Positions 1-27,451 of a stretch of 32,000 nt of DNA are shown piece after piece. The first letter of the stretch is position 1, and every line of letters starts with the position of its first letter. Made by a program: the position numbers and the translations under genes. The notes beneath the pieces were generated by a model. That model saw nothing but the letters and a program-made list of their open reading frames with translations. It made no database searches and was not told where the DNA came from. The DNA comes from Nanopusillaceae archaeon (GTDB lineage Archaea > Nanobdellota > Nanobdellia > Nanobdellales > Nanobdellaceae), in assembly GCA_049974095.1 (NCBI GenBank), contig JBMFJD010000001.1, positions 1 to 32,000 of the forward strand, given 5' to 3'.

Positions 1-1200
1 AATAGGCATAAAATACATATGAAGTATTATATACAGATAAATTTTCTATATTATTATATTGAAAAAAGACACTAGAGAAAGTATATGTAGCAGAGTAAGT
101 ACCTCCATAGCAGTAGGAATAAGGATAAATATAAAATACATTTGAAGTATTATATACAGATAAATTTTCTATATTATTATATTGAAAAAAGACACTAGAG
201 GACTCATTTCCATACATGGAATAGGAATAAAGATAAATATAAAATACATTTGAAGTATTATATACAGATAAATTTTCTATATTATTATTTTGGAAAGAGA
301 TGTTAGAGTAAGCATTTCCAGTAGTGGAATAGGAATAAGGATAAATATAAAATACATTTGAAATATTATAGACATATAGATTTTGTATATTATTATTTTG
401 GAAAGAGATGTTAGAGTAAGCATATCCAGAACTGGAGTTGGAATAGGAATAAGGATAAATATAAAATACATTTGAAATATTATAGACATATAGATTTTGT
501 ATATTATCATATTGAAAAGAGATGTTAGAGGAAGCATTTCCAGTAGTGGAATAGGAATAAGGATAAATATAAAATACATATGAAGTATTATATACAGATA
601 AATTTTCTATATTATCATATTGAAAAGAGACGTTAGAGAAAGCATTTCCAGAACTGATGTTGGAATAGGAATAAGGATAAATATAAAATACATATGGAGC
701 ATAATATACAGATAAATTTGTTATATTATCATATTGAAAAGAGACGTTAGAGTAAGCATATCCATTAGATCCAGAAGCTCCAGAGACGGAGGAATTAGAA
801 TAGGCATAAAATACATATGAAGTATTATATACAGATAAATTTTCTATATTATTATTTTGGAAAGAGACGCTAGAGAAAGCATACATAATAGTAGGGAAAG
901 GCCCTTCAGAATGGGCGAAGGAATTAGAATAGGCATAAAATACATATGAAGTATTATATACAGATAAATTTTCTATATTATTATATTGAAAAAAGACACT
1001 AGAGGAAGCATTTCCAGAATCGGAATTGGAATAAGGATAAATATAAAATACATATGAAGTATTATATACAGATAAATTTTCTATATTATTATATTGAAAA
1101 GAGACGTTAGAGTAAGCATATCCAGAACTGGAATAGGAATAGGAATATGCAAGAAATACATATTTTATATTTTCAACAGATAAATTTTCTATAGTTACTC
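1..1200 (-). repeat. Tandem in-frame coding repeat array, unit 108-129 bp, at least 10 copies, continuing off the window
   Basis: The conserved core 'aaaatacatatgaagtattatatacagataaattttctatattattatattgaaaa' recurs at 10, 133, 241, 349, 463, 571, 685, 808, 937 and 1045, with a degenerate copy at 1153. The spacings are 123, 108, 108, 114, 108, 114, 123, 129, 108 and 108 bp, all multiples of 3. A core of about 70 nt is near-identical between copies, and a 35-60 nt segment between cores is variable. Confidence 0.95.
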
Positions 1201-1519
1201 CAGTCATATTATAACTAACATTTATTGCTGTATTATTATCATTAGGACCTTTTCCAATTATATAATGATTATTTCCATTTATTATAATATCTGTAACTCC
1301 CGGTTTAATTGTTATACAAGAATTCCCAGATCCTGTTACATATAGATTTTGCGTTATAATATAATATCCTGATGAATTTATAGGATAAGGACACGAATTT
1401 ATATAATAAGGTTGGGTTTGAGAATATATATTATAACCCTTAGATAGAAATACTAGCAATATTATAAATAAAGCAAAAAATATTTTCTTAACCAAATTAT
1501 TAATATTAATGCTAACCAT
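1..1519 (-). CDS. Secreted or surface parallel beta-helix repeat protein, N-terminal 506 codons only (the ORF continues past the window start); missing from the supplied ORF track
   Basis: I translated the reverse strand by hand from the ATG (complement of 1517-1519); it is stop-free down to base 2. The N-terminus MVSININNLVKKIFFALFIILLVFLSKGYNIYSQ is a basic stretch plus a hydrophobic signal or anchor. It is followed by ITIKPGVTDIIINGNNHYIIGKG..NTAINVSYNMTGVTIENLSVEN, a NosD/pectate-lyase-like beta-helix rung pattern. After that come at least 10 tandem 36-43 aa units of the form NIENLSVYNTSYVFYIYPYSYS-[variable]-SNVSFQYNN. A TTTATAAA box lies 22-29 nt upstream. Confidence 0.8.
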   Translation of the reverse strand, partial: MVSININNLVKKIFFALFIILLVFLSKGYNIYSQTQPYYINSCPYPINSSGYYIITQNLYVTGSGNSCITIKPGVTDIIINGNNHYIIGKGPNDNNTAINVSYNMTGVTIENLSVENIKYVFLAYSYSYSSSGYAYSNVSFQYNNIENLSVYNTSYVFYIYPYSNSDSGNASSSVFFQYNNIENLSVYNTSYVFYAYSNSFAHSEGPFPTIMYAFSSVSFQNNNIENLSVYNTSYVFYAYSNSSVSGASGSNGYAYSNVSFQYDNITNLSVYYAPYVFYIYPYSYSNISSGNAFSNVSFQYDNIENLSVYNTSYVFYIYPYSYSTTGNASSNISFQYDNIQNLYVYNISNVFYIYPYSYSNSSSGYAYSNISFQNNNIQNLYVYNISNVFYIYPYSYSTTGNAYSNISFQNNNIENLSVYNTSNVFYIYLYSYSMYGNESSSVFFQYNNIENLSVYNTSNVFYIYPYSYCYGGTYSATYTFSSVFFQYNNIENLSVYNTSYVFYAY

Positions 1520-1540: not shown

Positions 1541-1548
1541 TTTATAAA
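1541..1548 (-). promoter_or_regulatory. Putative TATA box (TTTATAAA) for the beta-helix gene; spacing suggests a leaderless mRNA
   Basis: The octamer lies 22-29 nt upstream of the ATG at 1519. The same octamer at the same spacing precedes the GlyRS and EF-2 genes. Confidence 0.4.
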
Positions 1549-1689: not shown

Positions 1690-1863
1690 TTAAAAATTAA
1701 TAAATCCCTCTTTTATTAAATTTTTTGCTTCTTTTTTTATCTTTCTAAAACATTGAATATGAAATATCATTTTTTCCCCATTAACATTTATAGTTCTATA
1801 TTTTTCATCCGCATATACATCTTTATTACAATAATTACATTTCCCTATAATTTTCCTTTCCAT
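1690..1863 (-). CDS. Small zinc-ribbon-like protein (CxxC...HxxC), function unknown
   Basis: The track ORF 1690..1884 begins at a TTG. The first ATG (complement of 1861-1863) gives MERKIIGKCNYCNKDVYADEKYRTINVNGEKMIFHIQCFRKIKK..., which contains CNYC and HIQC as candidate metal ligands. The gene is divergent from fen. Confidence 0.45.
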   Translation of the reverse strand: MERKIIGKCNYCNKDVYADEKYRTINVNGEKMIFHIQCFRKIKKEAKNLIKEGFINF

Positions 1864-3008: not shown

Positions 3009-4602
3009 ATGCCTTATGTATATATTCTTTGAAACACCTATAAGAATTAAATAAGGGTCCTATTGTTTTTATAGCATTTAATGATACATCAACATATTTT
3101 TCATAATTATTTCTAAATTCGCTTAATACAAAATCTAATTTATTATAAAAGTCTTCTATATCTTTTTCATCATTATTTACATTTATATCATAATTATCTA
3201 ATCCAAAGAACCATCCATTATAATCATCAATAATTATTTCTAATGGAGATCCATCTCTGGAAAATAGTGTTGGAGTTCCACTTATTCCTGCCCTCATCCA
3301 TGAAGTTCCAGATGCTTCAAATGGTGGTCTTGGAATATGTAAAAATATATCTGTTCCAGATAATATTCTCCTTTCTTGTTCATATCCTCTCTTTAATATT
3401 AATCCTACAGGTAAATCTAATGTTGACATCATATCAATAATCCATTTTATTGTATTTTTCACAAATTCATCTTTGGGATGGAAAGATCCAGATAATAAAA
3501 ATTGTATTTTATATTTTTTATTTAATTCCTCTAATCTTTCTAATCTCCATAATAACATATGAAATCTTTTATATTCTGTTAATCTTCTCTTAACACTTAT
3601 TATTATCCTATCTTCTCTAAATTCTTTATTTAAATATGAATTTACATTTATATAGTCAATTAATTCTTTTCTCAATATATTTTTTATTTTAATAAATTGA
3701 GATCTATCAATTATTTGAGCATATGATAATTTAGAAGGTTCAGATCTCCATCCAGGTAAATATGTATCATATAAAAATGCAACTTTTCTATCTACCCATC
3801 TTAAATGATATACACCATTTGTTATATAATCTAATTTTTTTCCAAATACTTTTTCAGTAATTATTTTATGTTTATATGATACTGCATTAATATATCCTGA
3901 TAATTCAAATAATACTTTTGTTAAACTTAATTTATCTGGAGATATTTTTTTTATTTCTTCTGGTATATCATAATATTTTTCTATAACATTATAATTAAAT
4001 AAATCATGTCCTGCAATAATTGAATGAGTAGTAAATACAATTTTTTTCTTTACTTCATTTATATCTTTTAATCTTTTAAATAATTCAATTGCTAAAAATC
4101 CTCCATGCGATTCATTTAAATGATATTTATCAATTTCTATTCCCATTTTTTCAAAAAATTCCAATGTTCCTAATCCTAATAATAAATCCTTCAATAATTT
4201 TTCTTCCTCATTTCCTTCATAATATAATCTTCCAGTTAATTTCCTAATTTCTGGTGGATTTTCTGGCAAATCTGTATCAAATAAAAATAATTTTGAATGA
4301 GATAAACTATATTTCCAAACCTGGAAATATATTCTTTTTCCTTTTAAATCAATATAAAATTTATCCTCTAGATTTAAAAAATATTCCAATGGATCATATT
4401 CTTCTTCTTCATATACTATTTCTTTATTTTCAACTCTATATGCTCCATACCCTTTTTTATTTACAAATGTAATTCCATATATTGGATATCTTAAATCATT
4501 TGAAGAATATAATAAATCTCCTGCCAAAATTCCTAATCCTCCAGCATATGTTGGTAATTTTTCAATAGAAAACTCTTGTGATATAAATGCTATCTTTTTC
4601 AT
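3001..4602 (-). CDS. Alpha-glucan (glycogen/maltodextrin) phosphorylase family protein (GT35, short archaeal type), with substitutions at catalytic positions
   Basis: Family motifs are present: YAGGLGILAGDLLYSSNDL, VFTTHSIIAGHD, ITNGVYHLRW, KRRLTEYKR and FEASGTSWMRAGISG. The last aligns with the family motif EASGTSGMKAxxNG but has Arg where the PLP-binding Lys sits. Confidence 0.75.
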   Translation of the reverse strand: MKKIAFISQEFSIEKLPTYAGGLGILAGDLLYSSNDLRYPIYGITFVNKKGYGAYRVENKEIVYEEEEYDPLEYFLNLEDKFYIDLKGKRIYFQVWKYSLSHSKLFLFDTDLPENPPEIRKLTGRLYYEGNEEEKLLKDLLLGLGTLEFFEKMGIEIDKYHLNESHGGFLAIELFKRLKDINEVKKKIVFTTHSIIAGHDLFNYNVIEKYYDIPEEIKKISPDKLSLTKVLFELSGYINAVSYKHKIITEKVFGKKLDYITNGVYHLRWVDRKVAFLYDTYLPGWRSEPSKLSYAQIIDRSQFIKIKNILRKELIDYINVNSYLNKEFREDRIIISVKRRLTEYKRFHMLLWRLERLEELNKKYKIQFLLSGSFHPKDEFVKNTIKWIIDMMSTLDLPVGLILKRGYEQERRILSGTDIFLHIPRPPFEASGTSWMRAGISGTPTLFSRDGSPLEIIIDDYNGWFFGLDNYDINVNNDEKDIEDFYNKLDFVLSEFRNNYEKYVDVSLNAIKTIGPLFNSYRCFKEYIHKAYE

Positions 4603-4631
4603 TCAAAAATATAATATGTGAATATTTATAA

Positions 4632-6569
4632 CTATATAACATCTACCACCCATTCATAGTTAAATTTTTCTTTGAAATAATTTTCTAATTCATTTATATT
4701 TACCCTTATTTGTTCTTTTGTATCCCTAAATCTTATAGTAACGGTATTATCTTTTAATGTTTGATCATCAACAGTAATACAATAAGGAGTTCCAATTTCA
4801 TCCTGTCTTCTATATCTTGTTCCAATCCTTCCAGATTCATCATAATATACATCAAATTTTTTCCTTAATTTTTCATAGATTTCTTTTGCAATCTTTACAT
4901 GATTTTCATTTTTTTCTAATAGTGGAAATACAGCAATTTGTATTGGAGATAAATATTCAGGCAATTTTAATATATTATCATAAAATATACCTAATAATGA
5001 AAATATATTTCTATCTACCCCAAAGGATAATTCTAATTCAACAGGAATAAATTTTGATCCATCTTCTCTTGTTGCAATAAATCTTCTGTCTTTTGATAAT
5101 ATAAAATGATTCCATAAATCATATCCGACATATATTTCATCTTTTCCAACAAATAATTTCATTACATCTTCTCTTATTTCTTTATCTACTTTTTCAATAA
5201 TATCTGGTTTAAATTTTAATACCCTAAAATGTATTCCTCCAACTTCAGTCCATCCAACTTCATCCAAATATAATTCTAGATCAAAATGATATAAATTATA
5301 GAAAGATTTTTCATTATCTGCTAATTGATAAAATCTTATTCTTTCTTTTGGTATTTTTAATACTTTTGTATAAAATACAAATACTTTATATAAGAAATAA
5401 AGATAAAATTTATCAATTCCTGTTTCTTCATATATTTCCTTTAAGCTTTTTTCAATAAATTGAACATTTTTATCTCTATCTTTTGCCAGTAATACATTTA
5501 TATATTGATCTTTATATAATTCAAATTCTTTTTCAAATGGATTATTATAATAATCAAAGAATATTTGCAATTCTGCTTGTGTAAATTCTCTCATTCTTAA
5601 CAATGCATTTCTTGGAGATATTTCATTCCTAAATGCTTTTCCAATTACATATAATCCTAAAGGCAATCTATATCTATTAATAATAAATTCTATTGGGAAG
5701 TTTATATATGGTCCTTGTGCAGTTTCTGGTCTTAAGAACATTTCATTATTCATTAACCTGTTATATTTATCAATTATTTCTTTTAAATCATCCAAATCAA
5801 ATTTTAAATCAATATATTTCAGTTTTTCAAACATTTCTTCCAAATAATTTATTTCTTCTTTATCAATTTCCAAATCTTCAGGATAAATGAAATATTCATT
5901 CGATATACTATCATATTTTATTATTATTTTCTTATCTTTATCAAATATGTATGTTGTATTTTCTTTATTTATTGCAAATAATTCTTTATCCTTTAAATAT
6001 TTCACATATATATATGATACTCCCTCTTCATCAATTTTCTTATATTTTTTATCCTCTAATTCATTTAATATTCCAAACATTCTCTTTAAATCTTCCAAAT
6101 ATAAAAATAAATCTGATTCTGGTCCAACAAATATTGGAAACATCAAATTAAATAATTTAACATTTGATAATCTTTCTCCACATTCTGGACAAACAATTTT
6201 TCCTTGACTAAATATATTGTTCATATCTTCAATTGTTAAACTTTCTGCTTTAATTCCCAATTTTTCTTCAATTAATTTATCTGCCCTAAATCTATGTCCA
6301 TTCCTACACTCAACAATTGGATCATTAAACAATTCTAAATGCTTTGATGCAACAAAAACACCTTTATTCATTATTTCTGAAGGTTGTATTTCATATATAT
6401 TATTAAATAATTTACCAAAATATAGTCTCCATATATTTTCAAATCTTTTTTTTAATAATGTACCTAAAGATCCATAATCATAAAATCCAGATTTTCCTCC
6501 ATATATCTCTCCTGATTCATAGAAAAATCCTTTTTCTTTTGCAAATTTAATTAAACTATTAATATCCAT
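4632..6569 (-). CDS. glyS: Glycyl-tRNA synthetase (class II, archaeal/eukaryotic alpha2 type) with a lineage-specific insertion
   Basis: Recognised from FYESGEIYGGKSGFYDYGSLG, the zinc-ribbon-like ECRNGHRFRADKL...CPECGERL, FNLMF, LRPETAQG, FRNEISPR and the C-terminal anticodon-binding pattern PIQIAVFPL...GTPYCITVD. The 645-aa length exceeds the roughly 570 aa usual for archaeal GlyRS. Confidence 0.95.
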   Translation of the reverse strand: MDINSLIKFAKEKGFFYESGEIYGGKSGFYDYGSLGTLLKKRFENIWRLYFGKLFNNIYEIQPSEIMNKGVFVASKHLELFNDPIVECRNGHRFRADKLIEEKLGIKAESLTIEDMNNIFSQGKIVCPECGERLSNVKLFNLMFPIFVGPESDLFLYLEDLKRMFGILNELEDKKYKKIDEEGVSYIYVKYLKDKELFAINKENTTYIFDKDKKIIIKYDSISNEYFIYPEDLEIDKEEINYLEEMFEKLKYIDLKFDLDDLKEIIDKYNRLMNNEMFLRPETAQGPYINFPIEFIINRYRLPLGLYVIGKAFRNEISPRNALLRMREFTQAELQIFFDYYNNPFEKEFELYKDQYINVLLAKDRDKNVQFIEKSLKEIYEETGIDKFYLYFLYKVFVFYTKVLKIPKERIRFYQLADNEKSFYNLYHFDLELYLDEVGWTEVGGIHFRVLKFKPDIIEKVDKEIREDVMKLFVGKDEIYVGYDLWNHFILSKDRRFIATREDGSKFIPVELELSFGVDRNIFSLLGIFYDNILKLPEYLSPIQIAVFPLLEKNENHVKIAKEIYEKLRKKFDVYYDESGRIGTRYRRQDEIGTPYCITVDDQTLKDNTVTIRFRDTKEQIRVNINELENYFKEKFNYEWVVDVI

Positions 6570-6579
6570 TTTTCAATAT

Positions 6580-6587
6580 TTTTATAT
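6580..6587 (+). promoter_or_regulatory. Putative TATA-like box (TTTTATAT) for the RNase J gene
   Basis: The box lies 21-28 nt upstream of the ATG at 6608, which would interleave the two divergent promoters within the 38-nt spacer. Confidence 0.3.
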
Positions 6588-6590
6588 TTT

Positions 6591-6598
6591 TTTATAAA
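6591..6598 (-). promoter_or_regulatory. Putative TATA box (TTTATAAA) for glyS in a 38-nt divergent spacer
   Basis: The octamer lies 22-29 nt upstream of the glyS ATG (6569). Confidence 0.4.
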
Positions 6599-6607
6599 TT
6601 TATTCCA

Positions 6608-7936
6608 ATGGAAATTGAATTAATACCAATTGGAGGATATTCATATATTGGAAAAAATATGAGTGCAATTAGAATTGATGATGAAATAATAATAATTGAT
6701 ATTGGATTAAATGTTGATAAAATATCTCAATTTGGAGAAAGAGAAGATTTTATTGATAAACCAATGAAAGAATTATATGAACTAGATATAATTCCTGATG
6801 ATAATATTTTAGAAAAATATAAAGATAAAATAAAGGCAATAATATTAACACATGCACATTTAGATCATGTTGGAGCAGTGAATTTTATTGCACCAAAATA
6901 TAATGTCCCAATATATGGATCTCCATACACAATTGAAATAATAAAAGAGCAAGAAAAAGAATATGGAATTGTATTACCAAATGACTTAAAAAAGATATCT
7001 CCAAATTCTTCAATAAGAATATCTGATAAAATAACTATTAATTTTATTAATATAACACATTCTATTCCACAAGCATTAATGATTGATATACAAACAAATA
7101 AGGGACATATTGTATTTTCTGGAGACTTTAAATTCGATAATTTTCCATTAATTGGTAAAAAACCAAATATTAAAAAATTAAGAGAAATTGGAAAAGAAGG
7201 AGTATTATTATTAATAACAGAAACTACTAGAGCAGATGAAGAATCAAAGTCCCAATCTGAAATAATTGAAAAATATATGTTATATGACGTATTAAATTCT
7301 ATTGATACAAAAGGAATAATTATTACAACATTTGCTTCGCATATTGCAAGATTAAAAAGTATAATTGACTTAGGGAAAGAAATAAATAGAAAAGTTATAT
7401 TTATTGGAAGAAGTTTAGGAAAATATATTAAAGCTGCAGAAAATATTGGATTATATAATTTTTCTGAAAATTCAGAAATATATAGTGATGCAAGAGATTT
7501 TAGAAAATTGTTTGAAAGATTAAATAAAAACAAAGAAGAATATTTATTAGTTGCAACTGGGCATCAGGGAGAACCAGGTTCTGTATTGGATAGATTAGCA
7601 AGAGGAAATTTTGATTTTGATTTAAATGATACAACAATAATATTTGCAAATAATATAATTCCTCATCCAATAAATGAAGCAAATAGAAAAATATTAGAAG
7701 AAAGATTAAAAAGAAAAAAGGCAAATATAATAAAAGATATACATGTATCTGGTCATGCAAAAGCACAAGATCATTTAACGTTAATAAAAATGTTAAATCC
7801 TGAATATATTATTCCAAATCATGGAGATATAAATAAAAAAGCTTCATATTATAATATTATATCTGAAGAAGGTTATACATTGGGAGAAGATATATTTTTT
7901 ATAGAAGATTATCAAAGTAAAACATTTAATATATAA
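6608..7936 (+). CDS. rnj: Ribonuclease J (archaeal beta-CASP metallo-beta-lactamase nuclease)
   Basis: IPIGGYSYIGKNMSAIRIDDEIIIIDIGL is an RNase J N-terminal signature, and THAHLDHVGA supplies the HxHxDH motif. There is no KH domain, and the 442-aa length is typical of archaeal RNase J. Confidence 0.85.
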   Translation: MEIELIPIGGYSYIGKNMSAIRIDDEIIIIDIGLNVDKISQFGEREDFIDKPMKELYELDIIPDDNILEKYKDKIKAIILTHAHLDHVGAVNFIAPKYNVPIYGSPYTIEIIKEQEKEYGIVLPNDLKKISPNSSIRISDKITINFINITHSIPQALMIDIQTNKGHIVFSGDFKFDNFPLIGKKPNIKKLREIGKEGVLLLITETTRADEESKSQSEIIEKYMLYDVLNSIDTKGIIITTFASHIARLKSIIDLGKEINRKVIFIGRSLGKYIKAAENIGLYNFSENSEIYSDARDFRKLFERLNKNKEEYLLVATGHQGEPGSVLDRLARGNFDFDLNDTTIIFANNIIPHPINEANRKILEERLKRKKANIIKDIHVSGHAKAQDHLTLIKMLNPEYIIPNHGDINKKASYYNIISEEGYTLGEDIFFIEDYQSKTFNI

Positions 7937-7952
7937 AAGAAAATAATTTTTT

Positions 7953-8471
7953 ATGAAATCTATTCATATTTATATAGAATATATTTTGATAATATTATTA
8001 TCTGCATTTGCCTTTTACTTATTATATAATTGGTGGATAAATAATAGAATATATGCAATTAATTTCTATAATCAAAATAAATTTGAATATGAAGCAAAAT
8101 ATATTGGAGATATAATTTATAATTTACAAAATGATTATTTTTATGATATTCAATTAAATTTGAAAGGATATAAAATATTTTGTATGGATAATTTAACAAT
8201 AATTCAATCAAATAACTTTTGTAAAACTACATTAAATAATATCACATATCAAGGTCCTGTATTTTCTTCAAATAATTTATATTATGTTTATTATCCAATT
8301 CTAAATGGATATTATATATTAGAATATAAAGAAAATTCAATATTGTACGGATGCTACGCAAATTATTTATCAATAGTATTATTTACAAATAATTGTTCAG
8401 GAATATGTGAAGGAAATTGCATATTAAATTTACAAAAAAATGGAACTATTATTAGTAGTTATATAACATGA
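7953..8471 (+). CDS. N-terminally anchored, Cys/Asn/Tyr-rich extracellular protein; possible pilin-like subunit
   Basis: MKSIHIYIEYILIILLSAFAFYLLY is a short basic leader followed by a Glu-containing hydrophobic helix. The rest of the protein is charge-poor with 8 Cys. It is the first gene of the pilus-ATPase cluster and a paralogue of 15031..15645 (shared C-x-G-x-C-x-[IL]-N-[IL]-x-K motif). Confidence 0.4.
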   Translation: MKSIHIYIEYILIILLSAFAFYLLYNWWINNRIYAINFYNQNKFEYEAKYIGDIIYNLQNDYFYDIQLNLKGYKIFCMDNLTIIQSNNFCKTTLNNITYQGPVFSSNNLYYVYYPILNGYYILEYKENSILYGCYANYLSIVLFTNNCSGICEGNCILNLQKNGTIISSYIT

Positions 8472-8707
8472 GAAATCAATTATTATTAGAACAGGTATTA
8501 TTTATATTGTTAATTATACTATTTATTTCCCTTTCTATAATATTTTATCATAATTTTTTATCAAATATATATGAAAAAAATCAACTAATAAAAATACAAA
8601 TAAATAATGAAATAAGGGAAAATACTTTACTAAATAATCAATCAAATTTGATCTATTATTATGGTTATTACCAGAATGTAGGAACAATTATAATTAAAAA
8701 TTCCTAA
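8468..8707 (+). CDS. Small pilin-like protein (noncanonical class III signal-like N-terminus)
   Basis: The N-terminus is MRN|QLLLEQVLFILLIILFISL. If it is processed after Asn3, Gln sits at +1 and Glu at +5, as in euryarchaeal QxSxE-type prepilins. Position -1 is Asn rather than Gly/Ala. The start overlaps the upstream gene at an ATGA junction. Confidence 0.35.
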   Translation: MRNQLLLEQVLFILLIILFISLSIIFYHNFLSNIYEKNQLIKIQINNEIRENTLLNNQSNLIYYYGYYQNVGTIIIKNS

Positions 8708-8722
8708 GTTTTTCATATATTT

Positions 8723-10270
8723 ATGAAAAAGATTTCTGTTGAAGAGATATTAAAATATTTTGATGAGGAAGTTAAAAGAGAAAGCTATATTCCAAATATA
8801 AAATTTGACGATAAATCAAAAATTGATATAATTTATCCATTAATTTCAAAATTTGCATATGCACATATTTATTATGATGTAATTTCTGAAGAAATTATTT
8901 ATGAATTATTAGAACCCGAATTATCCGATGAAGAAAAAATATTAATAAATAAGATAAAAGAATTTATTTTAGATGAAATGTATAAAAATCCTGAAAGTTT
9001 TCTAAATAAAGATCCAAAATACATTTTAATTAAAAAATTGGAAGAATTTACAAAGAAATTTAAACTAAATATAGATAAAGAAGATTTCTTAAAATATTAT
9101 TATTATCTTTGGAGAGATATGCTAGGATTAGAAAAAATAGAACCTTTATTCTATGATATATTTATAGAAGATATATCATGTGATGGATATGATATTCCAA
9201 TATATGTTCATCATAATAAATTTGGAATATTAAGGACAAATATTATATTTACAAGAGAAGAATTAGATAGATTTGTTGTAAAATTAGCACAAAAGACAGG
9301 AAGACATATTTCATATGCGGAACCATTATTGGATGCTACATTACCAGATGGGTCTAGAATTAATATTACATATACTCAAGAAATTACAACAAGAGGTCCT
9401 ACTTTTACAATAAGAAAATTCAAAAAGCAAATGTTATCATTAGTAGATTTAATAAAATTAAATATGCTAGATGAAAAAATTGCTGCATATTTATGGACAT
9501 TAATAGAAGGAAGAGCAAATATATTAATCGCAGGTTCTACTTCTTCTGGAAAAACAACGTTATTAAATGCTATTGCTCAATTTATTCCTCCAGAAGCAAA
9601 AGTAATTTCAATTGAAGATACGAGAGAATTACAATTGTATCATGATAATTGGATACCTTCAACAACAAGAAGGGGATTCTTTATTGGAGAGAAATATTAC
9701 GGAGAAATAAATATGTATGATTTACTAGCAGAATCTTTTAGACAAAATCCAGACTATGTAATTGTTGGAGAAGTTAGAGGACAGGAAGCATATGTAATGT
9801 TCCAAGGCATGGCATCTGGACATGCTGCTTTATCTACAATACATACAGATACGTGGAGATCATTAATTAGAAGATTAACTACTCCACCAATTAATTTATC
9901 AATTGATCAATTTGCATTATTAGATGCAGTAATATTTACAATTAGAGCAAGAAATATTTCTCCATCTGCAAGAAGGATTAGAGAAATAATTGAAGTTGGA
10001 AAATATAAAGACAATAAAATTGAAGAAGAAACTGTTGTAAGATGGAATTTCTCAGAAGATAATTTTGAAATAGGAGAATTAGGAAAATATGCAGAAGAAT
10101 CTTTAAAATATAGAATGGGATATGAAAAACCTTTTGAAGAATCTATAAAAGAAAAGGAAAAAATAATAAAATATTTAGTTAAAAGGGATATAAGAGATCA
10201 AAAGAAAATAGCAGATTATATAAAGTTATATTATACAGATAAAGAATCTCTATTAGAAAAAATAAAATGA
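8723..10270 (+). CDS. Type II/IV secretion-family ATPase (FlaI/ArlI / archaeal PilB-like)
   Basis: Walker A is GSTSSGKTTLLNA. Other family motifs are TFTIRKF, DYVIVGEVRGQEAYVMFQGMASGHAALSTIH (Walker B and His box). The 515-aa length is typical of FlaI-like ATPases. Confidence 0.9.
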   Translation: MKKISVEEILKYFDEEVKRESYIPNIKFDDKSKIDIIYPLISKFAYAHIYYDVISEEIIYELLEPELSDEEKILINKIKEFILDEMYKNPESFLNKDPKYILIKKLEEFTKKFKLNIDKEDFLKYYYYLWRDMLGLEKIEPLFYDIFIEDISCDGYDIPIYVHHNKFGILRTNIIFTREELDRFVVKLAQKTGRHISYAEPLLDATLPDGSRINITYTQEITTRGPTFTIRKFKKQMLSLVDLIKLNMLDEKIAAYLWTLIEGRANILIAGSTSSGKTTLLNAIAQFIPPEAKVISIEDTRELQLYHDNWIPSTTRRGFFIGEKYYGEINMYDLLAESFRQNPDYVIVGEVRGQEAYVMFQGMASGHAALSTIHTDTWRSLIRRLTTPPINLSIDQFALLDAVIFTIRARNISPSARRIREIIEVGKYKDNKIEEETVVRWNFSEDNFEIGELGKYAEESLKYRMGYEKPFEESIKEKEKIIKYLVKRDIRDQKKIADYIKLYYTDKESLLEKIK

Positions 10271-16987: not shown

Positions 16988-18925
16988 CTATTCTTCTACT
17001 TTTTCCCTTCCTTTTCCTCCTTTTATTCTAGATTCCGCTAATATTGATGCAATAATAATAATTGCAACTATTACCAATATCCAGAATATTATTTCTTCTG
17101 ATGGTATTGTTAATTGCGTTGTTGTTCCATATGCTGTATATGTTTGATTTAATGTAAATAATACTTTTCCTGTATTTTGATCAATTATATCTACATATAC
17201 TGTTACATTATTAGATTCTGCTGTTACATTTAATGGTATTTGCTCTGAATATGTACCTCCAATTTGTACTGTTTGTTGTTCTGGATATACTTTTCCGCCT
17301 ACAGCATATGCTTGTACTAATAAATTATATATTTGCGTTGTGTTTGCTGATAATACTAAATATATTGTTGTATTTTTACCAATTGTTAATTGTTTATATC
17401 CAATCAATGATGCTGTAATTGGATAATATACTGGAACTGTTCCATTTACATATAAATTATATGTATATTGCTGTGCTATTCCATTATAATTAAATACAAA
17501 TGTTATTGGATAATATCCTGCTTCTAATCCTTCTGGTATATATATTACTACTGGTAATTGTGTTGGCGTATTTGGAGATAATGTTATTGTTGATAATTGC
17601 TGAAGCATATTTAATTGCTGTGATTCTACCATTGGTGTTACTTGTAAATCCATTGGTAGATTTGATTCTAATTCTAAGTACAATTCTACAAAGCTTCCTG
17701 GTTTTACATTAAATGTATTTGCATATACATTTAATACATTTACAGGTTGTATATTTTGCTCATTTACAGTTATTTGATATGTATATTCATTTATTTCTAC
17801 CCCATTTTCATATAAGTATAATATAATTGTATAATATCCCGGAGATAATCTAATAGTACTAAATGGTATTATTATTTCTCCTTGTTGTTGTGGACTTATT
17901 AATTGTGAATTTTCTAAATTATATATTAAATTTCCATATTGATCATATAATAATAATTGTATTGTTGCATTTACTGTTTGATATCCTGGATTTTCTAATA
18001 ATAAATTTATGTTATATAATGCAGATCCTAAATTTGTTAATTTATTGAAGTTTGGTGATATTGATAATACCTCTAATTGCCCTCCATATTGATTATTTGA
18101 TATATAGAATGAATCTGTTGTATATTGTGTTAATACTTGTCCATTTACTAGTACTGCATTTAATTGTTCTGTTATATACATTTGTCCTTCTACATTTTGT
18201 AAATAGTAATTTGGTATTGACATTGTTACTAAGTTTTCTCCTGGTTGTAAATTAATATTTTCTTGTGTTTGATATACAATATTTCCTTGTGAATTATATA
18301 ATGTTAATGTTAAGGTTGCAGATTGAATATTTGTTTCTGTATTTTGTACATATACTACTGATTGTACATTTAATCCATATTCCTGTACTTGCTGTTGAGA
18401 AATTACCTGAGGTAATTGTACAATAGATAATGATAAATTATATGGCAAATATACAATTGAATAATATTGTTGTTGCGACAAGAGTTTTTCAGTATTGTTT
18501 TGATATATTAATGCTACTGTTGCATTTACTGTAATATTACTTACTGTAGTAGTTATCTCTGTACATACATAATTTGTACATGTTTGTACTACTTGCTGTT
18601 GCTGTGCTAAATTTAATATTTGTGGATTTACTGTAATTGTATATATATTATTTCCTGTATATACAGCTATTGGTTCATAATATTGATATATTAAATTATT
18701 ATTTGGTCCATATATATTGAAATACAAATATGCTTCATATGGTTTTTGTTCTACTCCCAATAATTTTACTGTAAATGTCAATCCATTGCTAATATAATTT
18801 CCTAATAATGTTGATGCTTGTGGTTCTATTACTATTTGTTGTGATTTTACTGCAAATGCTACTATTGCTAATGCTAAAAGAAAGCCAAATATCTTTTTAA
18901 ATGTTACTGCAAATTTGTTATCCAT
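16988..18925 (-). CDS. Cell-surface (S-layer-like) glycoprotein candidate with a C-terminal membrane anchor
   Basis: It has a signal peptide (MDNKFAVTFKKIFGFLLALAIVAFAVKSQQ) and a C-terminal TM helix with a basic tail (IIFWILVIVAIIIIASILAESRIKGGKGREKVEE). In between are about 575 aa rich in Q/N/Y/T/V with repeated beta-sandwich (CARDB-like) patterns, for example ATLTLTLYNSQGNIVYQ...LQPGENLVTMSIP and VNATIQLLLYDQYGNLIYN...LSPGYYTIILYLY. Sequons are numerous and charged residues very few. Confidence 0.6.
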   Translation of the reverse strand: MDNKFAVTFKKIFGFLLALAIVAFAVKSQQIVIEPQASTLLGNYISNGLTFTVKLLGVEQKPYEAYLYFNIYGPNNNLIYQYYEPIAVYTGNNIYTITVNPQILNLAQQQQVVQTCTNYVCTEITTTVSNITVNATVALIYQNNTEKLLSQQQYYSIVYLPYNLSLSIVQLPQVISQQQVQEYGLNVQSVVYVQNTETNIQSATLTLTLYNSQGNIVYQTQENINLQPGENLVTMSIPNYYLQNVEGQMYITEQLNAVLVNGQVLTQYTTDSFYISNNQYGGQLEVLSISPNFNKLTNLGSALYNINLLLENPGYQTVNATIQLLLYDQYGNLIYNLENSQLISPQQQGEIIIPFSTIRLSPGYYTIILYLYENGVEINEYTYQITVNEQNIQPVNVLNVYANTFNVKPGSFVELYLELESNLPMDLQVTPMVESQQLNMLQQLSTITLSPNTPTQLPVVIYIPEGLEAGYYPITFVFNYNGIAQQYTYNLYVNGTVPVYYPITASLIGYKQLTIGKNTTIYLVLSANTTQIYNLLVQAYAVGGKVYPEQQTVQIGGTYSEQIPLNVTAESNNVTVYVDIIDQNTGKVLFTLNQTYTAYGTTTQLTIPSEEIIFWILVIVAIIIIASILAESRIKGGKGREKVEE

Positions 18926-18951: not shown

Positions 18952-19731
18952 TTAAATGCTACCACTACTTCTTATAGAATATATTTCACTATCCCCAGGA
19001 AGATATTTAATTATATCATCTATATCAATTTTAAATATTTTATTTATTTCTTTTGCAATATCTAATGGTTTCTTGTTTCCTGGAATTAATATAACATAAT
19101 TTTCATATTTATTTATAATACTTTCAGGAATTCCTGGAAAAATTTCAAAATCTTTGAATCCAAAGGCGATTTCCAATTTTACTTTTAAATAATTCTTTTT
19201 TCCATATATCATAAAAGATCCTTTTTTAATATACATTCCAGAAGGTGCTTTTTTAGAAACTTGTTCTGGATATACATAATATACATCAACTGATGATAAT
19301 TTATTTTTCCATGCTCTTGAATATGAACTAACAAATTTTGCAGCTTCATATATATCATTTTCTTTTGCTTCTTGTCCATTTTTTAATATACCAAAAGGAG
19401 AACCAATAATATCTGCATGAAGAACAAGATCCTTTTTCTCTAAATATTTATTTATTAAAATTTCATTTGTATTTACATCTTTTCCAGCAATTAGTAAAAA
19501 TCCATTTGATGTAAACATCCATCTAAATTTTTCATACCATTTTTTATTTCTTTTTCTTTCCTCTTTCTTTTTTTCAACCTCAATTTCTTTTTCAATATTT
19601 TTTAATTTTTCTTCATTTTCTTTAATTAATTTTTCCAAATTTTCTTTTTTATTTTTTAATTCTCTTATCTTTTCATATAATTCATTTATATTTTCATATA
19701 TATTTTTCCTAATATCAATTTTTATTTCCAT
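18952..19731 (-). CDS. NFACT-family (Rqc2/NEMF/FbpA-like) protein, C-terminal part only: coiled coil plus NFACT-R/DUF814
   Basis: KWYEKFRWMFTSNGFLLIAGKDVNTNEILINKYLEKKDLVLHADIIGSPFGILKNG matches the DUF814 signature (compare WFEKFRWFISS..GGRD..QNE...KYL...D.Y.HAD..GA). It is preceded by a K/E-rich coiled coil. No NFACT-N domain is present. Confidence 0.75.
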   Translation of the reverse strand: MEIKIDIRKNIYENINELYEKIRELKNKKENLEKLIKENEEKLKNIEKEIEVEKKKEERKRNKKWYEKFRWMFTSNGFLLIAGKDVNTNEILINKYLEKKDLVLHADIIGSPFGILKNGQEAKENDIYEAAKFVSSYSRAWKNKLSSVDVYYVYPEQVSKKAPSGMYIKKGSFMIYGKKNYLKVKLEIAFGFKDFEIFPGIPESIINKYENYVILIPGNKKPLDIAKEINKIFKIDIDDIIKYLPGDSEIYSIRSSGSI

Positions 19732-20542
19732 TTTTCCAACATATATTATAGAATAGACATTTCTTACATTTTTCAGTATAATTTTTTCCTGGATCTTCCT
19801 TATTTTCTATCATATCTAATATTTTATCTTTTATTTCCAAAATTCTCTCTATTTCTTTCTTATTTTTAAATTCAATTTCCTTTTTATAATTATCTTTTAC
19901 ATACAATATATATCCTTTCTCTATTTTATACTTGGGAAATTCATCCTTTAATAATAAATAATATGAATATAATTGAGTAATATGCTCTCTTTTAAAAAAT
20001 CCTGATTTTATTTCATAAGGAATTATAAAATTTCTATATATTTCTAATCTATCTACTCTTCCAACAATATTATATTTTAATGACGTAACATCCAATTCTG
20101 TCATAATTTTTGGCTCTAGACCATCCCAAAGCTCTATTCCATATAAATCATTATTTATAATAAAATTAAATACATTTTTCGCCCTTTCCTCAATATCTTT
20201 TGAAATATAATTAAATGATTTTATCTTTATTGTATTTATATCCATATTTAATTTTTCTATTTCTTCTTTAAACTCATCTATTACTTTATCAATTATTTCT
20301 AACAGAAATTTATTATATAACTCTAAAATATATTCAAATCCTTTATTTTCCTTTATATTATATATTATTTCCTTTTCTTTCTCATTTATATTATCAAAAA
20401 TTGAATGAACAATAGATCCAAAAACTTTTTTTTCTGTACTTTCTTCTTCATATCTCAAAACCCTTTTCAGATATACTTTTCTAGGACAAAACATATAATC
20501 TGTAATATCTGTTACTCTAACAAATTTATCATTAATTTCCAC
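19715..20542 (-). CDS. Cas4-like / RecB-family PD-(D/E)xK nuclease with a 4-Cys cluster (DUF83)
   Basis: The start codon is GTG. The N-terminal VTDITDYMFCPRKVYLKR carries the first Cys. The nuclease core is GRVDRLE...IIPYEIKSG (D...ExK), followed by QLYSYYLLL and the C-terminal CKKCLFYNIC (CxxCx5C). It overlaps the downstream NFACT-C gene by 17 nt. Confidence 0.75.
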   Translation of the reverse strand: MEINDKFVRVTDITDYMFCPRKVYLKRVLRYEEESTEKKVFGSIVHSIFDNINEKEKEIIYNIKENKGFEYILELYNKFLLEIIDKVIDEFKEEIEKLNMDINTIKIKSFNYISKDIEERAKNVFNFIINNDLYGIELWDGLEPKIMTELDVTSLKYNIVGRVDRLEIYRNFIIPYEIKSGFFKREHITQLYSYYLLLKDEFPKYKIEKGYILYVKDNYKKEIEFKNKKEIERILEIKDKILDMIENKEDPGKNYTEKCKKCLFYNICWKNGNKN

Positions 20543-21808: not shown

Positions 21809-22017
21809 TGAAATATATTATAGATATAGATTATAAAAAATGTATAAATTGTTTTGCATGTTATTTAATAAATAGAGATATTTTTGGGATAAAAGAAAAT
21901 AAGATATATTTAAAAAAGAAGATAATCGAAGATGAAAATGAAATAAATGATCTAATTGAGGCTGCAAAAGCATGTCCTGCAAATGCTATATATTATCAAA
22001 TAGTAGAGGAAGATTAA
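21808..22017 (+). CDS. Single-cluster [4Fe-4S] ferredoxin (divergent third paralogue)
   Basis: The cluster motif is CINCFAC...ACPANAI. The start overlaps the upstream stop at a TAATG junction. Confidence 0.8.
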   Translation: MKYIIDIDYKKCINCFACYLINRDIFGIKENKIYLKKKIIEDENEINDLIEAAKACPANAIYYQIVEED

Positions 22018-22043
22018 TAAATTTCAATATATTTTTTATCTAT

Positions 22044-22607
22044 ATGGCATTTTATAATATATTCATAAACTTACTTACTCAGATGGGATTCTTTAATGTT
22101 ATCATTCCCTTCCTACTTGTGTATTCAATTATTTATGGTTTGCTTGCAAAATATAAAATAATTGGTGATCCATATAAAAGTGATGCCGAAGGGAAAGCAA
22201 CAAGAAGTTTAATTTCAATGATTGCCGCTGCAATAGGATTTTTTGTTGTTGCAGCAGCAAATGTTGTTCTTGAAATGTTAACATTAATTCCATACTTTGT
22301 TCTATTTATTTTAACAATATTTTTACTTTTATTAGCAATTGCTCCATTTATTACATCTGGAGGTGAAATAAAAATTGAAGGAAAAACAAGAAATATATTA
22401 TTAGCAGCTTCTATAATTGCATTTTTCTTAATAACTATGTTTTCTTTAGGATTATTTAATTATCTGGCTGGAGTATCTAGCTATTTTTCCTCTGGATATA
22501 CTATTCAAATAGTAGAAACTTTATTAGTATTAGGAATACTATTTGGAATAGTATATTGGATTGTTAAAGTACCGGCTAAAGAAGAAAAAAGTTCTCAATC
22601 AAAATGA
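22044..22607 (+). CDS. Polytopic membrane protein, paralogue 1 of 3 (uncharacterised family)
   Basis: I moved the start to the ATG at 22044 (MAFYNIFINLLTQMGFFNVIIPFLLVYSIIYGLLAK), because the track start at 21972 lies inside the ferredoxin gene. The protein has about 5 TM helices and contains no Cys or His. The C-terminus is ...GIVYWIV followed by a Lys/Glu tail. Confidence 0.7.
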   Translation: MAFYNIFINLLTQMGFFNVIIPFLLVYSIIYGLLAKYKIIGDPYKSDAEGKATRSLISMIAAAIGFFVVAAANVVLEMLTLIPYFVLFILTIFLLLLAIAPFITSGGEIKIEGKTRNILLAASIIAFFLITMFSLGLFNYLAGVSSYFSSGYTIQIVETLLVLGILFGIVYWIVKVPAKEEKSSQSK

Positions 22608-23191
22608 TATATAACTTTACAACAAACTTTATTTCTTTGTTATCTCAATATGGATTATTTGATTTAATTTTACCATTTCTACTAATATTTTCACTAATTT
22701 ATATGATATTAGAATTATCCAGTTTATTAAAAACAAATCCTGATGATCCTGTTGGAAGAAAATTAAATGCAGTCTTTGCATTTTCTTTTGCTTTAATTTC
22801 TTTAGCTAATCAAAATCTAATTTATTGGCTATTATCATTTATCCCAAATGCTTCAATAGCTATATTAGCATTTTTCTTATTAGCCATAGTTATTAGTTTA
22901 ATGGGAAAAAACATACCAGGAATTGCAAGAGCATTATTGGCATTTCTTGTTATTGGAATAATACTATGGTTAGCAGTAAATGCATTAGAATTTCAAAGTA
23001 GTTCAAATTATCAGACAGCAGGAGTAATTTCTTATGTAATAAATTATTTAATACAATCTGGTCTTTTAGAAATTATAATTATTTTCTTATTACTATTCTT
23101 AGCAGTATATTGGATAATTGGTGGAAAGGAAAAGAAGGAAGAAAAGGAAGAAGATAAAGGGGGAACACCAATTATAATTACATCTAAATAA
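22604..23191 (+). CDS. Polytopic membrane protein, paralogue 2 of 3
   Basis: The N-terminus (NFISLLSQYGLFDLILPFLLIFSLIYMIL) and C-terminus (AVYWIIGGKEKKEEKEE) share the motifs of the neighbouring paralogues. The start overlaps the upstream gene at an ATGA junction. Confidence 0.7.
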   Translation: MIYNFTTNFISLLSQYGLFDLILPFLLIFSLIYMILELSSLLKTNPDDPVGRKLNAVFAFSFALISLANQNLIYWLLSFIPNASIAILAFFLLAIVISLMGKNIPGIARALLAFLVIGIILWLAVNALEFQSSSNYQTAGVISYVINYLIQSGLLEIIIIFLLLFLAVYWIIGGKEKKEEKEEDKGGTPIIITSK

Positions 23192-23835
23192 TGGACGTAG
23201 CATCTTTTATATATTTGTTATTTTCTGAATATGGAATATTTACAATTATTGCTCCTTTTCTTCTAATCTTTTCTCTTACTTATGGATTATTAAGAAAGAC
23301 AAACCTATTTGGAAAAGATAATCCTGCAAAAGAAAAATTATATGGAATAATAGCATTAGCAATATCTTTTTATTATATATATGATTTAGGCGGTGTAATA
23401 TTTACACAACACTTTTTATCATTCTTCTTCTTTGAAGTATTAGTCCTCTTCTTTATTTTAATGATAATTTCTCTATTTGGAATAATAAGTAAACCATATG
23501 AATCAAAAGATCCATTATATCAAAAGTATAAAAATACAGCATACAATTCATTGGTAGGTATACTTGGATTATTAGTATTATTTGCTTTTATGTATGCTTC
23601 TTCTCAATCTTTTAATTTATTTGGACAATCTTCAGCAAATATTCTATCTATGATACTTACAATTTTAATAAATACAGGTCTTTTACCAGTAATTATAATA
23701 ATTGGAATATTAATTGGAATAATATATTGGATAATACATCCAGGTTCGCCTAATACTAAAAAGAAAACAAAATATATTATTATTGGTGCAGGAGAATCCC
23801 CATATCAACTAGTAGAACAAATATCTAAAAAATAG
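23191..23835 (+). CDS. Polytopic membrane protein, paralogue 3 of 3
   Basis: ASFIYLLFSEYGIFTIIAPFLLIFSLTYGLLRKTNLFG and GIIYWIIHPGSPNTKKKTK share the family motifs. The start overlaps the upstream stop at a TAATG junction. Confidence 0.7.
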   Translation: MDVASFIYLLFSEYGIFTIIAPFLLIFSLTYGLLRKTNLFGKDNPAKEKLYGIIALAISFYYIYDLGGVIFTQHFLSFFFFEVLVLFFILMIISLFGIISKPYESKDPLYQKYKNTAYNSLVGILGLLVLFAFMYASSQSFNLFGQSSANILSMILTILINTGLLPVIIIIGILIGIIYWIIHPGSPNTKKKTKYIIIGAGESPYQLVEQISKK

Positions 23836-26371: not shown

Positions 26372-27451
26372 ATGGATAAAAAAAGATTTATATTATCTTC
26401 TCTATTAGGTATAGGAATTACCAATATTCTTTCAAATATAGTACATTCGCAAACAAGTAATTATGGAATATATAATGGCTTAGGTTCTTCTTTACAAACA
26501 GGTTTTGGATCATCATTATATGAATTAGCTTCAATTTTGCCACCTCAATATAATACTGCTGCTACACAAATAGGGTTGCCAGCATATACAGGAGCGATAA
26601 TTTTAGCTACTGTTATGTTTTTATTATTCTTTGCAGTATATTATATAATAACCAGTTCTTTTACATCAAAAGTAGGAATTTCTGGAAATACATCTGTAGA
26701 AAGAGCAATAATAATATTTATAATAGCTTTAGCAATATTGTCAGTATTCTTAATTGGTCCATTTTTAGCATATATGTTAGTAGCATTTGGATTAATATCA
26801 GTTGCCGCTTTTGTCTTTTTTGCAATAGCTATTATTATAATGACTACGTGGTTTAAAGGAAAGACTTATTATCATCAATTAAAAGTAGAACATGTGGGTG
26901 CCAAAAAATTACACTATAAACAATATGATGAAGAATTAATAAAAGGAGTGAAAGCTAAAGCGGAAGTAGAAAAATATGAAAGAGAGTTAAAAGCAAGTAA
27001 TAAAACTAAAGAAATTTTGAAATTATTAAAGAAAATATTACCAGGAACTGCCAGGACAAGTCCTTTAAAATTAATCGAAAAAAGAATTAATAATTTAAAT
27101 AAAGAATTTAAAAGATTTATAAACAAAAGATATCCAAATGAATTAATAAAAATTCTAGATAATCAAAAACTATCACCAGCAGAAAAATCACAAAGAATTC
27201 TAAGTATATATCATCAAATAGCTCATGATCATGCTAGAATTAAACATGAAATTGAATCTATTCTAAATTATCTTAACAATTTATTAAATACTAGTAATAT
27301 TAGATCACCTAAATTTCATTCGTTAATAATTAGATTAGAAGCAGATATAAAAAATAGATTTAATGGAATAACCATAGAAATAAACAAAGTTATAGATCAC
27401 ATAAATCAACAGTTACATCTTAATTTACAGCATTTTGGCATAATTAAATAA
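26372..27451 (+). CDS. Membrane protein with signal peptide, about 3 TM helices and a long cytoplasmic coiled-coil tail; function unknown
   Basis: The N-terminus is MDKKRFILSSLLGIGITNILSNIVHSQ. Hydrophobic segments include GAIILATVMFLLFFAVYYII, IIIFIIALAILSVFLIGPFLAYMLVAFGLISVAAFVFFAIAIIIM. A K/E/N-rich helical region of about 190 aa follows. Confidence 0.55.
   Translation: MDKKRFILSSLLGIGITNILSNIVHSQTSNYGIYNGLGSSLQTGFGSSLYELASILPPQYNTAATQIGLPAYTGAIILATVMFLLFFAVYYIITSSFTSKVGISGNTSVERAIIIFIIALAILSVFLIGPFLAYMLVAFGLISVAAFVFFAIAIIIMTTWFKGKTYYHQLKVEHVGAKKLHYKQYDEELIKGVKAKAEVEKYERELKASNKTKEILKLLKKILPGTARTSPLKLIEKRINNLNKEFKRFINKRYPNELIKILDNQKLSPAEKSQRILSIYHQIAHDHARIKHEIESILNYLNNLLNTSNIRSPKFHSLIIRLEADIKNRFNGITIEINKVIDHINQQLHLNLQHFGIIK

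Follow-up and report, generated by a model that had tools for sequence, protein, structure and literature searches.

A putative beta-helix surface rod with a recently homogenised coil array at a contig edge of a Nanopusillaceae archaeon

The subject of this report is a gene cut by the edge of a contig from a Nanopusillaceae archaeon (GTDB lineage Archaea; Nanobdellota; Nanobdellia; Nanobdellales; Nanobdellaceae; NCBI GenBank assembly GCA_049974095.1, contig JBMFJD010000001.1), of which positions 1 to 32,000 of the forward strand were analysed and are called the window from here on. The partial coding sequence lies at 2..1519 on the minus strand, with its 3' end beyond the window edge, and very probably encodes a Sec-exported cell-surface beta-helix rod of a thermoacidophilic Nanobdellota (Nanopusillaceae) ectosymbiont, which would serve as a non-catalytic spacer or contact rod made of recently duplicated coils; its export, anchoring, glycosylation and contact with a host are features that we infer. 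The evidence for an exported beta-helix surface protein comes from the open frame itself, from a syntenic gene, YN1_2370, in Nanoarchaeota archaeon YN1, and from AlphaFold2 models. Read from the N-terminus, the product would consist of a signal peptide, a conserved cap and then at least 11 coils of a right-handed parallel beta-helix.

The 506-codon minus-strand open reading frame (ORF) is genuine and not a product of chance. Translation from the ATG at 1519 down to position 2 gives 506 sense codons and no stop, just as an initial annotation made from the sequence alone had described, in a window with a guanine plus cytosine (GC) content of 19-30 % (23 % here); stop codons make up about 9 % of random codons (about 1 in 11), and arithmetic at 23 % GC puts the chance probability of such a frame at about 1e-21. 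It is the longest open frame at that end of the window and was missed by the ORF list because the program that made the list omits frames running off its source, as this one does. The only ORF listed there, of 100 amino acids (aa) at 277..579 on the minus strand, is out of frame, again in agreement with the initial annotation, and was rejected as a gene, being an alternative frame of the repeat array. There is a lesson for annotation here, in that ORF lists which drop edge-truncated frames can lose long genes.

The first 33 residues (MVSININNLVKKIFFALFIILLVFLSKGYNIYS; 1421..1519, minus strand) have the composition of a signal peptide, with a KK n-region, a 13-residue hydrophobic core and the motif NIYSQT, which upholds the earlier assignment of a signal or anchor sequence, and the single-sequence AlphaFold2 model places a helix at aa 6-26, within this segment. 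NIYSQT follows the hydrophobic region in YN1_2370 as well, similar motifs are found in other exported ORFs of the window, and a cleavage site adjoining 'SQT' can be inferred. More generally, a motif of the form [IVF]-[YKHF]-S-Q-[TSQ] (NIYSQT, VKSQQ, VHSQTS, KIFSQS) trails the hydrophobic N-terminal core in putative exported proteins of this lineage and is probably a signal-peptidase site; it was seen in the window at 1421..1519 (minus), 16988..18925 (minus) and 26372..27451 (plus), and at 7413..9734 and 3383..7336 of the YN1 locus, L001.

The signal peptide is followed by an N-terminal beta-helix cap, aa 34-108 (1196..1420, minus strand), recognised by phmmer, hhalign, AlphaFold2 and Smith-Waterman shuffles, and carrying the motif I-x-S-C-P-Y-x-I-x-S-x-G-x-Y ... 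C-I-x-I ... I-I-x-G-N-x-H-x-I-I-G. An exhaustive phmmer search of 1.84 billion representatives gave four matches, of which P0003 and P0004 align to the cap at E about 6e-4, and P0001 and P0002 were discarded as spurious, being unrelated repeat proteins. A profile built from caps retrieved 45 proteins, among them 22 with PF13229 and/or PF05048 and one named 'right-handed parallel beta-helix repeat-containing protein'; hhalign of the window and YN1 pair against 19 PF13229-annotated proteins gave 98.2 % and E 2.8e-14 over 90 columns, covering the cap and first coil. Compared profile to profile, the cap and first coil are homologous to Pfam Beta_helix (PF13229) proteins, and AlphaFold2 with a 37-sequence alignment models the cap with block-mean predicted local distance difference test (pLDDT) values mostly above 90 (84-97). 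Of the 'NosD-like beta-helix cap' first annotated here, the beta-helix cap is upheld and the NosD part holds only in the generic superfamily sense: hmmscan of the protein against PF13229 and PF05048 gave no match even at E <= 10, and PF05048 is present in 4 of the 45 cap relatives. A NosD function was rejected, since PF05048 is not matched and no NosF/NosY-type ABC transporter was matched among the scanned ORFs of the 32-kb window, and the copper-binding role of NosD (PF05048) is not implied for this protein. A sequence search of the PDB found nothing with the single protein and, with the profile, only a marginal pectate-lyase match (E 0.15). A word-indexed homology search with the whole protein gave 8000 candidates, none significant, low-complexity words probably having swamped the index; the same search with the cap (aa 27-150) gave two candidates and no match, and a metagenome scan with the repeat protein found nothing.

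Next comes a degenerate first repeat coil, aa 109-144 (TIENLSVENIKYVFLAYSYSYSSSGYAYSNVSFQYN; 1088..1195, minus strand), which aligns with the units that follow and holds the last lysine of the visible protein, K119. The tandem array proper, with at least 10 in-frame units, covers aa 145-506 (2..1087, minus strand) and was delimited by Tandem Repeats Finder, repeat finding, codon alignment and AlphaFold2. No other tandem repeat in the window comes near it in strength: over 114..1193, Tandem Repeats Finder detects periods of 108, 129 and 222 bp at 78-85 % matches, and repeat finding gives 10 copies at a spacing of 108-129 bp. Splitting the protein at N-I-x-N-L yields units, numbered U1 onwards, of 36, 43, 41, 38, 36, 38, 36, 36 and 41 aa, followed by a 17-aa unit cut by the window edge, so that the earlier count of at least 10 tandem units of 36, 38, 41 or 43 aa is confirmed. 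Each unit consists of a beta-helix coil of about 24 aa and one loop of variable length. Codon alignment resolves the unit scaffold into a 20-residue N-terminal part, NIENLSVYNTSYVFYIYPYS, and an 8-residue C-terminal part, S-N/S-V/I-S/F-F-Q-Y/N-N/D, with length variation confined to the loop that joins them; most scaffold codons are the same from unit to unit, synonymous sites included. These results sustain what had been claimed of a scaffold near-identical at the DNA level (0 of 84 nt differ between U6 and U7, and 1-2 nt among U1, U8 and U9) and of a single loop taking up the variation in length, and every loop string that had been listed is present. The further description of that loop as hypervariable and cassette-like goes beyond what the units show, as 7 of the 10 loops share the core x-x-G-N/Y-A-x and only U2, U3 and U9 have large insertions. 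Coil-to-coil variation inside one gene is normal for beta-helices.

A window that ends inside the array invites the suspicion of an assembly artefact, such repeats being prone to collapse in short-read assemblies, or of a pseudogene in decay. We regard this as very improbable: the 506 codons are free of stops in DNA of low GC content, the indels between units are all multiples of three in the codon alignment, neither the signal peptide nor the cap shows damage, and an intact homologue of the same plan is present in the closest complete genome.

A beta-solenoid had been anticipated in the initial annotation, and an all-beta solenoid is what AlphaFold2 gives, alongside the beta-helix homology found by profile comparison. 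The model made from no alignment has a mean pLDDT of 82.8 and a predicted template modelling score (pTM) of 0.83, with the repeats above 90 and three strands per unit. Foldseek comparisons with the PDB, for both the single-sequence and the alignment-based models, give lists made up almost entirely of pectin-lyase-fold proteins, including polygalacturonases, PL1, PL3 and PL6 lyases, GH87, phage tailspikes, AlgE4, PfbA, autotransporter passengers and NosD (rank 41); all of the 50 top-ranking PDB matches, pectate lyases among them, have this fold, and the best match has E 5.6e-3 and probability 0.92. The predicted fold is accordingly a right-handed parallel beta-helix of pectin-lyase type, its handedness likewise being a prediction. 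Units of 24 aa without a loop, which is the canonical PbH1 coil length, exist in the YN1 protein, so the window units of 36-43 aa can be read as a PbH1 coil with an inserted loop. A coil would then be a PbH1-type core of about 24 residues (N-N-I-E-N-L-S-V-Y-N-T-S-Y-V-F-Y-I-Y-P-Y-S) extended to 36-43 aa by a loop at one turn, and successive loops would be aligned along one side of the rod.

A fold shared with so many carbohydrate-active proteins raises the question of an enzyme: a lyase or glycosidase, secreted or anchored, that would degrade polysaccharides and cut the glycans of the host surface layer (S-layer). Polygalacturonases, pectate lyases and phage depolymerase tailspikes do dominate the fold matches, Kato et al. 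speculate in this direction for the 'pectin lyase-like' proteins of Nanobdella aerobiophila (bioRxiv 10.1101/2023.10.27.564410), and host N-glycans are reported to lose a sugar residue in YN4 co-culture (10.64898/2026.06.04.730037). Yet Arg is missing from the visible 506 residues, Lys does not occur past aa 119, and Asp and His number only 6 and 2; within this part neither a catalytic Asp cluster, nor an Arg/Lys base with Ca-binding Asp residues, nor any of the GH28 motifs (NTD, DD, HG, RIK) or lyase-type motifs was found. The acidic residues are for the most part a single Glu that recurs at one position of each coil. An enzymatic role of the visible part is unlikely because these catalytic residues and motifs were not found and because near-identical coils leave no differentiated active-site cleft.

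The neighbouring genes in the window are archaeal housekeeping genes (FEN1, a glycogen-synthase/phosphorylase-like glycosyltransferase, threonyl-tRNA synthetase (ThrRS), a beta-CASP RNase J, FlaI/FlaJ-like proteins, aEF-2 and exosome subunits). In species-representative genomes the closest FEN1 is that of Nanoarchaeota archaeon YN1 (92 % identity), followed by Nanopusillus acidilobi (90 %) and 'Nanobsidianus stetteri' (89 %); Nanopusillus genomes and metagenome-assembled genomes range over 87-90 %, and Nanoclepta, at 72 %, is more distant. To the right of FEN1, gene order is conserved and identities are 75-89 %. By sequence, then, the organism is placed in a Nanopusillaceae/Nanobdellota ectosymbiont lineage and closest to the cultured strain YN1, itself an ectosymbiont, which agrees with the 'putative ectosymbiont' of the initial annotation. 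YN1 and Nanopusillus-type organisms are obligate ectosymbionts of Sulfolobales. YN1 has been co-cultured with Sulfurisphaera ohwakuensis, to which it attaches via a cone-shaped organelle (PMC11420986).

In YN1 the position immediately upstream of FEN1 is held, in the same relative orientation, by YN1_2370 (BFI73250.1; L001 7413..9734), a protein of 773 aa annotated as 'hypothetical', and the next gene after it, YN1_2360, encodes a 1317-aa PKD/DUF2341 surface protein. YN1_2370 shares with the window gene its slot, marked by FEN1 and a small zinc-ribbon-like ORF, a signal peptide ending in NIYSQT, the same cap motifs and a very low content of Lys and Arg. Its coil unit, NNSFSNI(N/Y)IYNSxYGIY(L/F/S)Yxxx (coil core N-N-S-F-S-N-I-x-I-Y-N-S-x-Y-G-I-Y-x-Y), carries the variable loop at the same turn as in the window protein, and a Smith-Waterman comparison of the cap with YN1_2370 gives z = 8.1 over composition-preserving shuffles. 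The two differ in that YN1_2370 has about 7-8 units of 24-45 aa, against at least 11 of 36-43 aa in the window protein, and in that YN1_2370 is complete: past the coils it continues with irregular coils and some 400 more residues to a hydrophobic C-terminus, a region that lies beyond the visible part of the window gene. By analogy, the window protein would probably continue, in its missing part, with more beta-rich domains and end in a membrane anchor. The final ~160 residues of YN1_2370, hydrophobic tail included, are about 34 % identical to the C-terminus of a 1215-aa surface protein of N. acidilobi-type genomes.

DNA conservation between the window and YN1 spans FEN1 and the small ORF at 1690..1863 (minus strand) and ends at the stop codon of that ORF. 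The ORF, which lies between FEN1 and the surface gene, encodes 57 aa (MERKIIGKCNYCNKDVYADEKYRTINVNGEKMIFHIQCFRKIKKEAKNLIKEGFINF) with a CxxC...HxxC zinc-ribbon-like pattern and no Pfam match. Identity to YN1_2370 is 28-39 %, compared with 86-92 % for FEN1, the glycosyltransferase, ThrRS and RNase J, and so the gene diverges far faster than its surroundings. The syntenic slot in all Nanopusillus-type genomes and in 43 metagenome loci recovered by a FEN1 scan is filled with unrelated housekeeping genes and holds no homologue; on this evidence the gene is confined to the YN1-like lineage, and YN1_2370 appears to be its only true homologue.

Recombination acting on the array, as had been suspected from the near-identity of its units, is borne out by a scaffold mosaic, by near-identical units that are not adjacent, and by repeats more alike within than between genomes. 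Scaffold DNA distances are not ordered by position: the identical pair U6 and U7 stands beside U2 and U3, which differ by 4 nt, and U1 is as close to U8 and U9 as stated above though some 800 bp away from them. A 222-bp duplication of two units, U4-U5 and U6-U7, can be recognised by loop type, while the scaffold variant NIQNLYVYNISN is found in U6 and U7 and not in U4 and U5; U6 and U7 combine an equal scaffold with different loops, and U5 and U7 carry the same loop codons, TCC ACT ACT GGA AAT, on different scaffolds. The four-gamete test is failed by 31 of 136 informative site pairs, and sites that are compatible lie in spatial clusters (permutation P = 0.0175). For cores of units from the same genome, identity is 0.81 in the window and 0.79 in YN1; for cores compared across the two genomes it is 0.37, and the ranges do not overlap, the highest between-genome value (0.48) being below the lowest within-genome value (0.65); at the DNA level the YN1 array has periods of its own, 96 and 72 bp. 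Mosaic structure and within-genome homogeneity together are the signature of concerted evolution, by tandem duplication with gene conversion or unequal crossing-over. The ratio of non-synonymous to synonymous differences (pN/pS) among the scaffolds of the units is about 0.82, and the copies are therefore young and weakly constrained against one another. In such a scheme the coils would have arisen by recent in-frame tandem duplication, including the two-unit event of 222 bp, unequal crossing-over or gene conversion would keep them homogeneous, and the length of the rod and its row of loops could consequently change quickly.

It is a further step to a programmed variation locus, in which loop 'cassettes' are shuffled or copy number is switched, as in phase or antigenic variation, for host specificity or for evasion of host or viral recognition. 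Near-identical DNA repeats, mosaic combinations of scaffold and loop, and a strongly diverged orthologue would suit such a locus, but we consider it improbable: no reverse transcriptase, recombinase or invertase family was matched among the window ORFs scanned, silent copies of a cassette were not seen, the loops have a core in common and differ by sizeable insertions in three units only, and ordinary slippage with unequal crossing-over explains the pattern. The target of a diversity-generating retroelement was considered separately and rejected, given that the scanned window ORFs have no reverse-transcriptase match and that differences between units include indels and are not restricted to adenines.

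The composition of the array is as unusual as its regularity. Lys and Arg are entirely missing from aa 145-506, a stretch of 362 aa (the earlier estimate of its length was roughly 380), and Ser, Tyr and Asn together make up 54 % of it; the other ORFs of the window average 13.5 % Lys plus Arg, and the earlier claim on composition, which set the repeats against the very Lys-rich cytosolic proteins of the window, holds. The absence is the extreme of a general trend among exported proteins here and is not peculiar to this gene: Lys plus Arg amounts to 2.9-5.2 % in three further window ORFs for putative exported or membrane proteins, and the mature YN1 homologue has 9 such residues in 727. One consequence of the absence of Lys and Arg is that trypsin-based proteomics or glycoproteomics is blind to the repeats, for which chymotrypsin or a similar protease would be needed.

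Sequons for N-glycosylation (N-x-S/T) number 29 in the array and 35 in the 506 aa, or 6.9 per 100 aa, compared with at most 2.5 in other window ORFs. Complete units carry 2-4 of them (mean 3.0), with two each in U2, U7 and U9, and the earlier statement of at least three per unit has to be corrected to this extent. Composition alone predicts about 13 sequons vs the 29 seen in the array, in a comparison where the repeats are not independent samples. N-glycosylation is established in the group, HexNAc-linked glycans having been described on proteins of strains MJ1 and YN4 (10.64898/2026.06.04.730037); by analogy the rod is probably N-glycosylated, and the literature yielded no glycoproteomic data on this particular protein.

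The same features could belong to a general structural element of the envelope of the symbiont itself, such as a stalk that serves as an anchor or is associated with the S-layer; it would have no part in host recognition, and its divergence would reflect relaxed constraint on a low-complexity repeat. This is possible, and the strongest of the competing explanations, while clearly less probable than the spacer or contact rod. The hydrophobic C-terminal tail of YN1_2370 fits it, the scaffold pN/pS is compatible with weak constraint, and other proteins that this acidophile exports are likewise rich in Ser, Tyr and Asn and poor in charge. Conservation would, however, be expected of a part essential to the envelope, and the slot lacks the gene in every Nanopusillus-type genome and in the 43 metagenome loci; moreover, the named S-layer candidates of the lineage are different proteins (PMC11420986).

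Several points weigh against the interpretation as an exported, non-catalytic beta-helix rod. Direct Pfam and NCBIfam scans of the protein were empty; the homology of YN1_2370, for which synteny, architecture and the shuffle test speak, is weaker than HMMER can recover in searches of whole databases; no Foldseek E-value is better than 1e-3 and the template modelling scores lie at 0.3-0.5 (at most 0.49); and AlphaFold2, run on a single sequence with idealised repeats, may overstate its confidence. The excess of sequons stems in part from structural Asn and Ser positions of the coil, and the gene is cut at the window edge, which puts the C-terminal part, with any anchor or catalytic domain, outside the visible 506 residues. 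With these points taken into account, we still favour a rigid, acid-stable, glycosylated and membrane-anchored spacer or contact rod, which would show a face rich in Tyr, Ser and Asn and may contact the glycosylated S-layer of the host. Host contact is plausible given a lineage-specific gene, its fast evolution and the variation of surface proteins in Nanoarchaeota, whose cell-surface proteins show an excess of non-synonymous single-nucleotide polymorphisms (PMC6142677). The terms 'adhesin', 'NosD-like' and 'hypervariable cassette' go beyond the evidence.

To our knowledge it has yet to be explained how a DPANN ectosymbiont recognises its host and keeps hold of it; surface proteins that evolve fast are the obvious candidates. 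A bolder proposal, which we put forward as speculative and unlikely, is that the coil array is a fast-evolving determinant of host specificity, recombination among the 108-129-bp units changing the length of the rod and reshuffling its surface loops; if so, YN1, with Sulfurisphaera as host, and the present genome would show different contact faces and attach to different Sulfolobales hosts. The window gene and YN1_2370 form an orthologous pair that is sharply different amid flanks of 86-92 % identity, and at least YN1 is in co-culture, and the gene is a sensible candidate for host-interaction studies without being a new type of system.

Other features of the window and of related genomes can be noted more briefly. 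A candidate archaeal TATA box, TTTATAAA, lies at 1541..1548 (minus strand), 22-29 nt upstream of the ATG of the surface gene and preceded by a purine-rich AAAAGA; its spacing would fit a leaderless or near-leaderless mRNA, though such motifs are common at 23 % GC, and a scan for bacterial sigma-70 promoters was uninformative (22 seen vs 20 expected). A second large putative surface protein is encoded at 16988..18925 (minus strand), with 645 aa, a signal peptide, 2.9 % Lys plus Arg and only sub-threshold Pfam matches to immunoglobulin (Ig)-like and carbohydrate-binding-module-like families. The island of surface proteins differs in location between N. acidilobi-type genomes, where giant DUF2341/PKD-type proteins (1215 and 860 aa) separate ThrRS from RNase J (L002 14710..21016), and the window and YN1, where ThrRS and RNase J are adjacent (4632..7936 in the window) and the surface genes are upstream of FEN1. 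A Cas4/Csa1-type PD-(D/E)XK nuclease (E 1.5e-16) at 19715..20542 (minus strand) adjoins an NFACT RNA-binding protein, and the tandem-repeat scan of the window showed no CRISPR array. Three consecutive ORFs of about 200 aa with few charged residues occupy 21972..23835 (plus strand), the first with a weak T4SS_pilin match and the last two with similar N-termini, and may be pilin-like or membrane paralogues.

Beta-helical repeat adhesins are well known in bacteria. The autotransporter passengers UpaB and Hbp, the binding region of the L. reuteri serine-rich repeat protein (SRRP) and Streptococcus pneumoniae PfbA are, like the rod proposed here, surface-anchored, non-enzymatic beta-helical rods of repeated coils with a binding face, and several bacterial beta-helix adhesins are among the Foldseek matches; there is no sequence relationship, and the window protein differs in using an archaeal Sec signal peptide and a probable C-terminal transmembrane helix. 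Within the Beta_helix (PF13229)/NosD (PF05048) superfamily coils measure 22-25 aa, compared with 36-43 aa in the window protein by virtue of its inserted loop. Among archaea, beta-helical repeat adhesin-like proteins have been described from gut methanogens (PMC11532034), and, from Nanobdella aerobiophila, three surface proteins termed 'pectin lyase-like', which are 908-1320 aa long, have 36-52 N-glycosylation sites and combine Ig-like folds with repeats of a parallel beta-helix (bioRxiv 10.1101/2023.10.27.564410). The latter, MJ1_0451, MJ1_0701 and MJ1_0776, resemble the window protein, in a comparison by description only, as exported parallel beta-helix proteins of Sulfolobales ectosymbionts with dozens of sequons, and differ from it in having 1-8 Ig-like folds and no reported array of near-identical coils. 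The window protein has the signal peptide, predicted beta-helix and many sequons that mark this class, and is a sequence-isolated, fast-evolving member of a class of surface proteins already described in close relatives; it stands out by the great regularity and recent homogenisation of its coil array, by a run of 362 residues that lacks both Lys and Arg, and by the sharp contrast with its YN1 counterpart.

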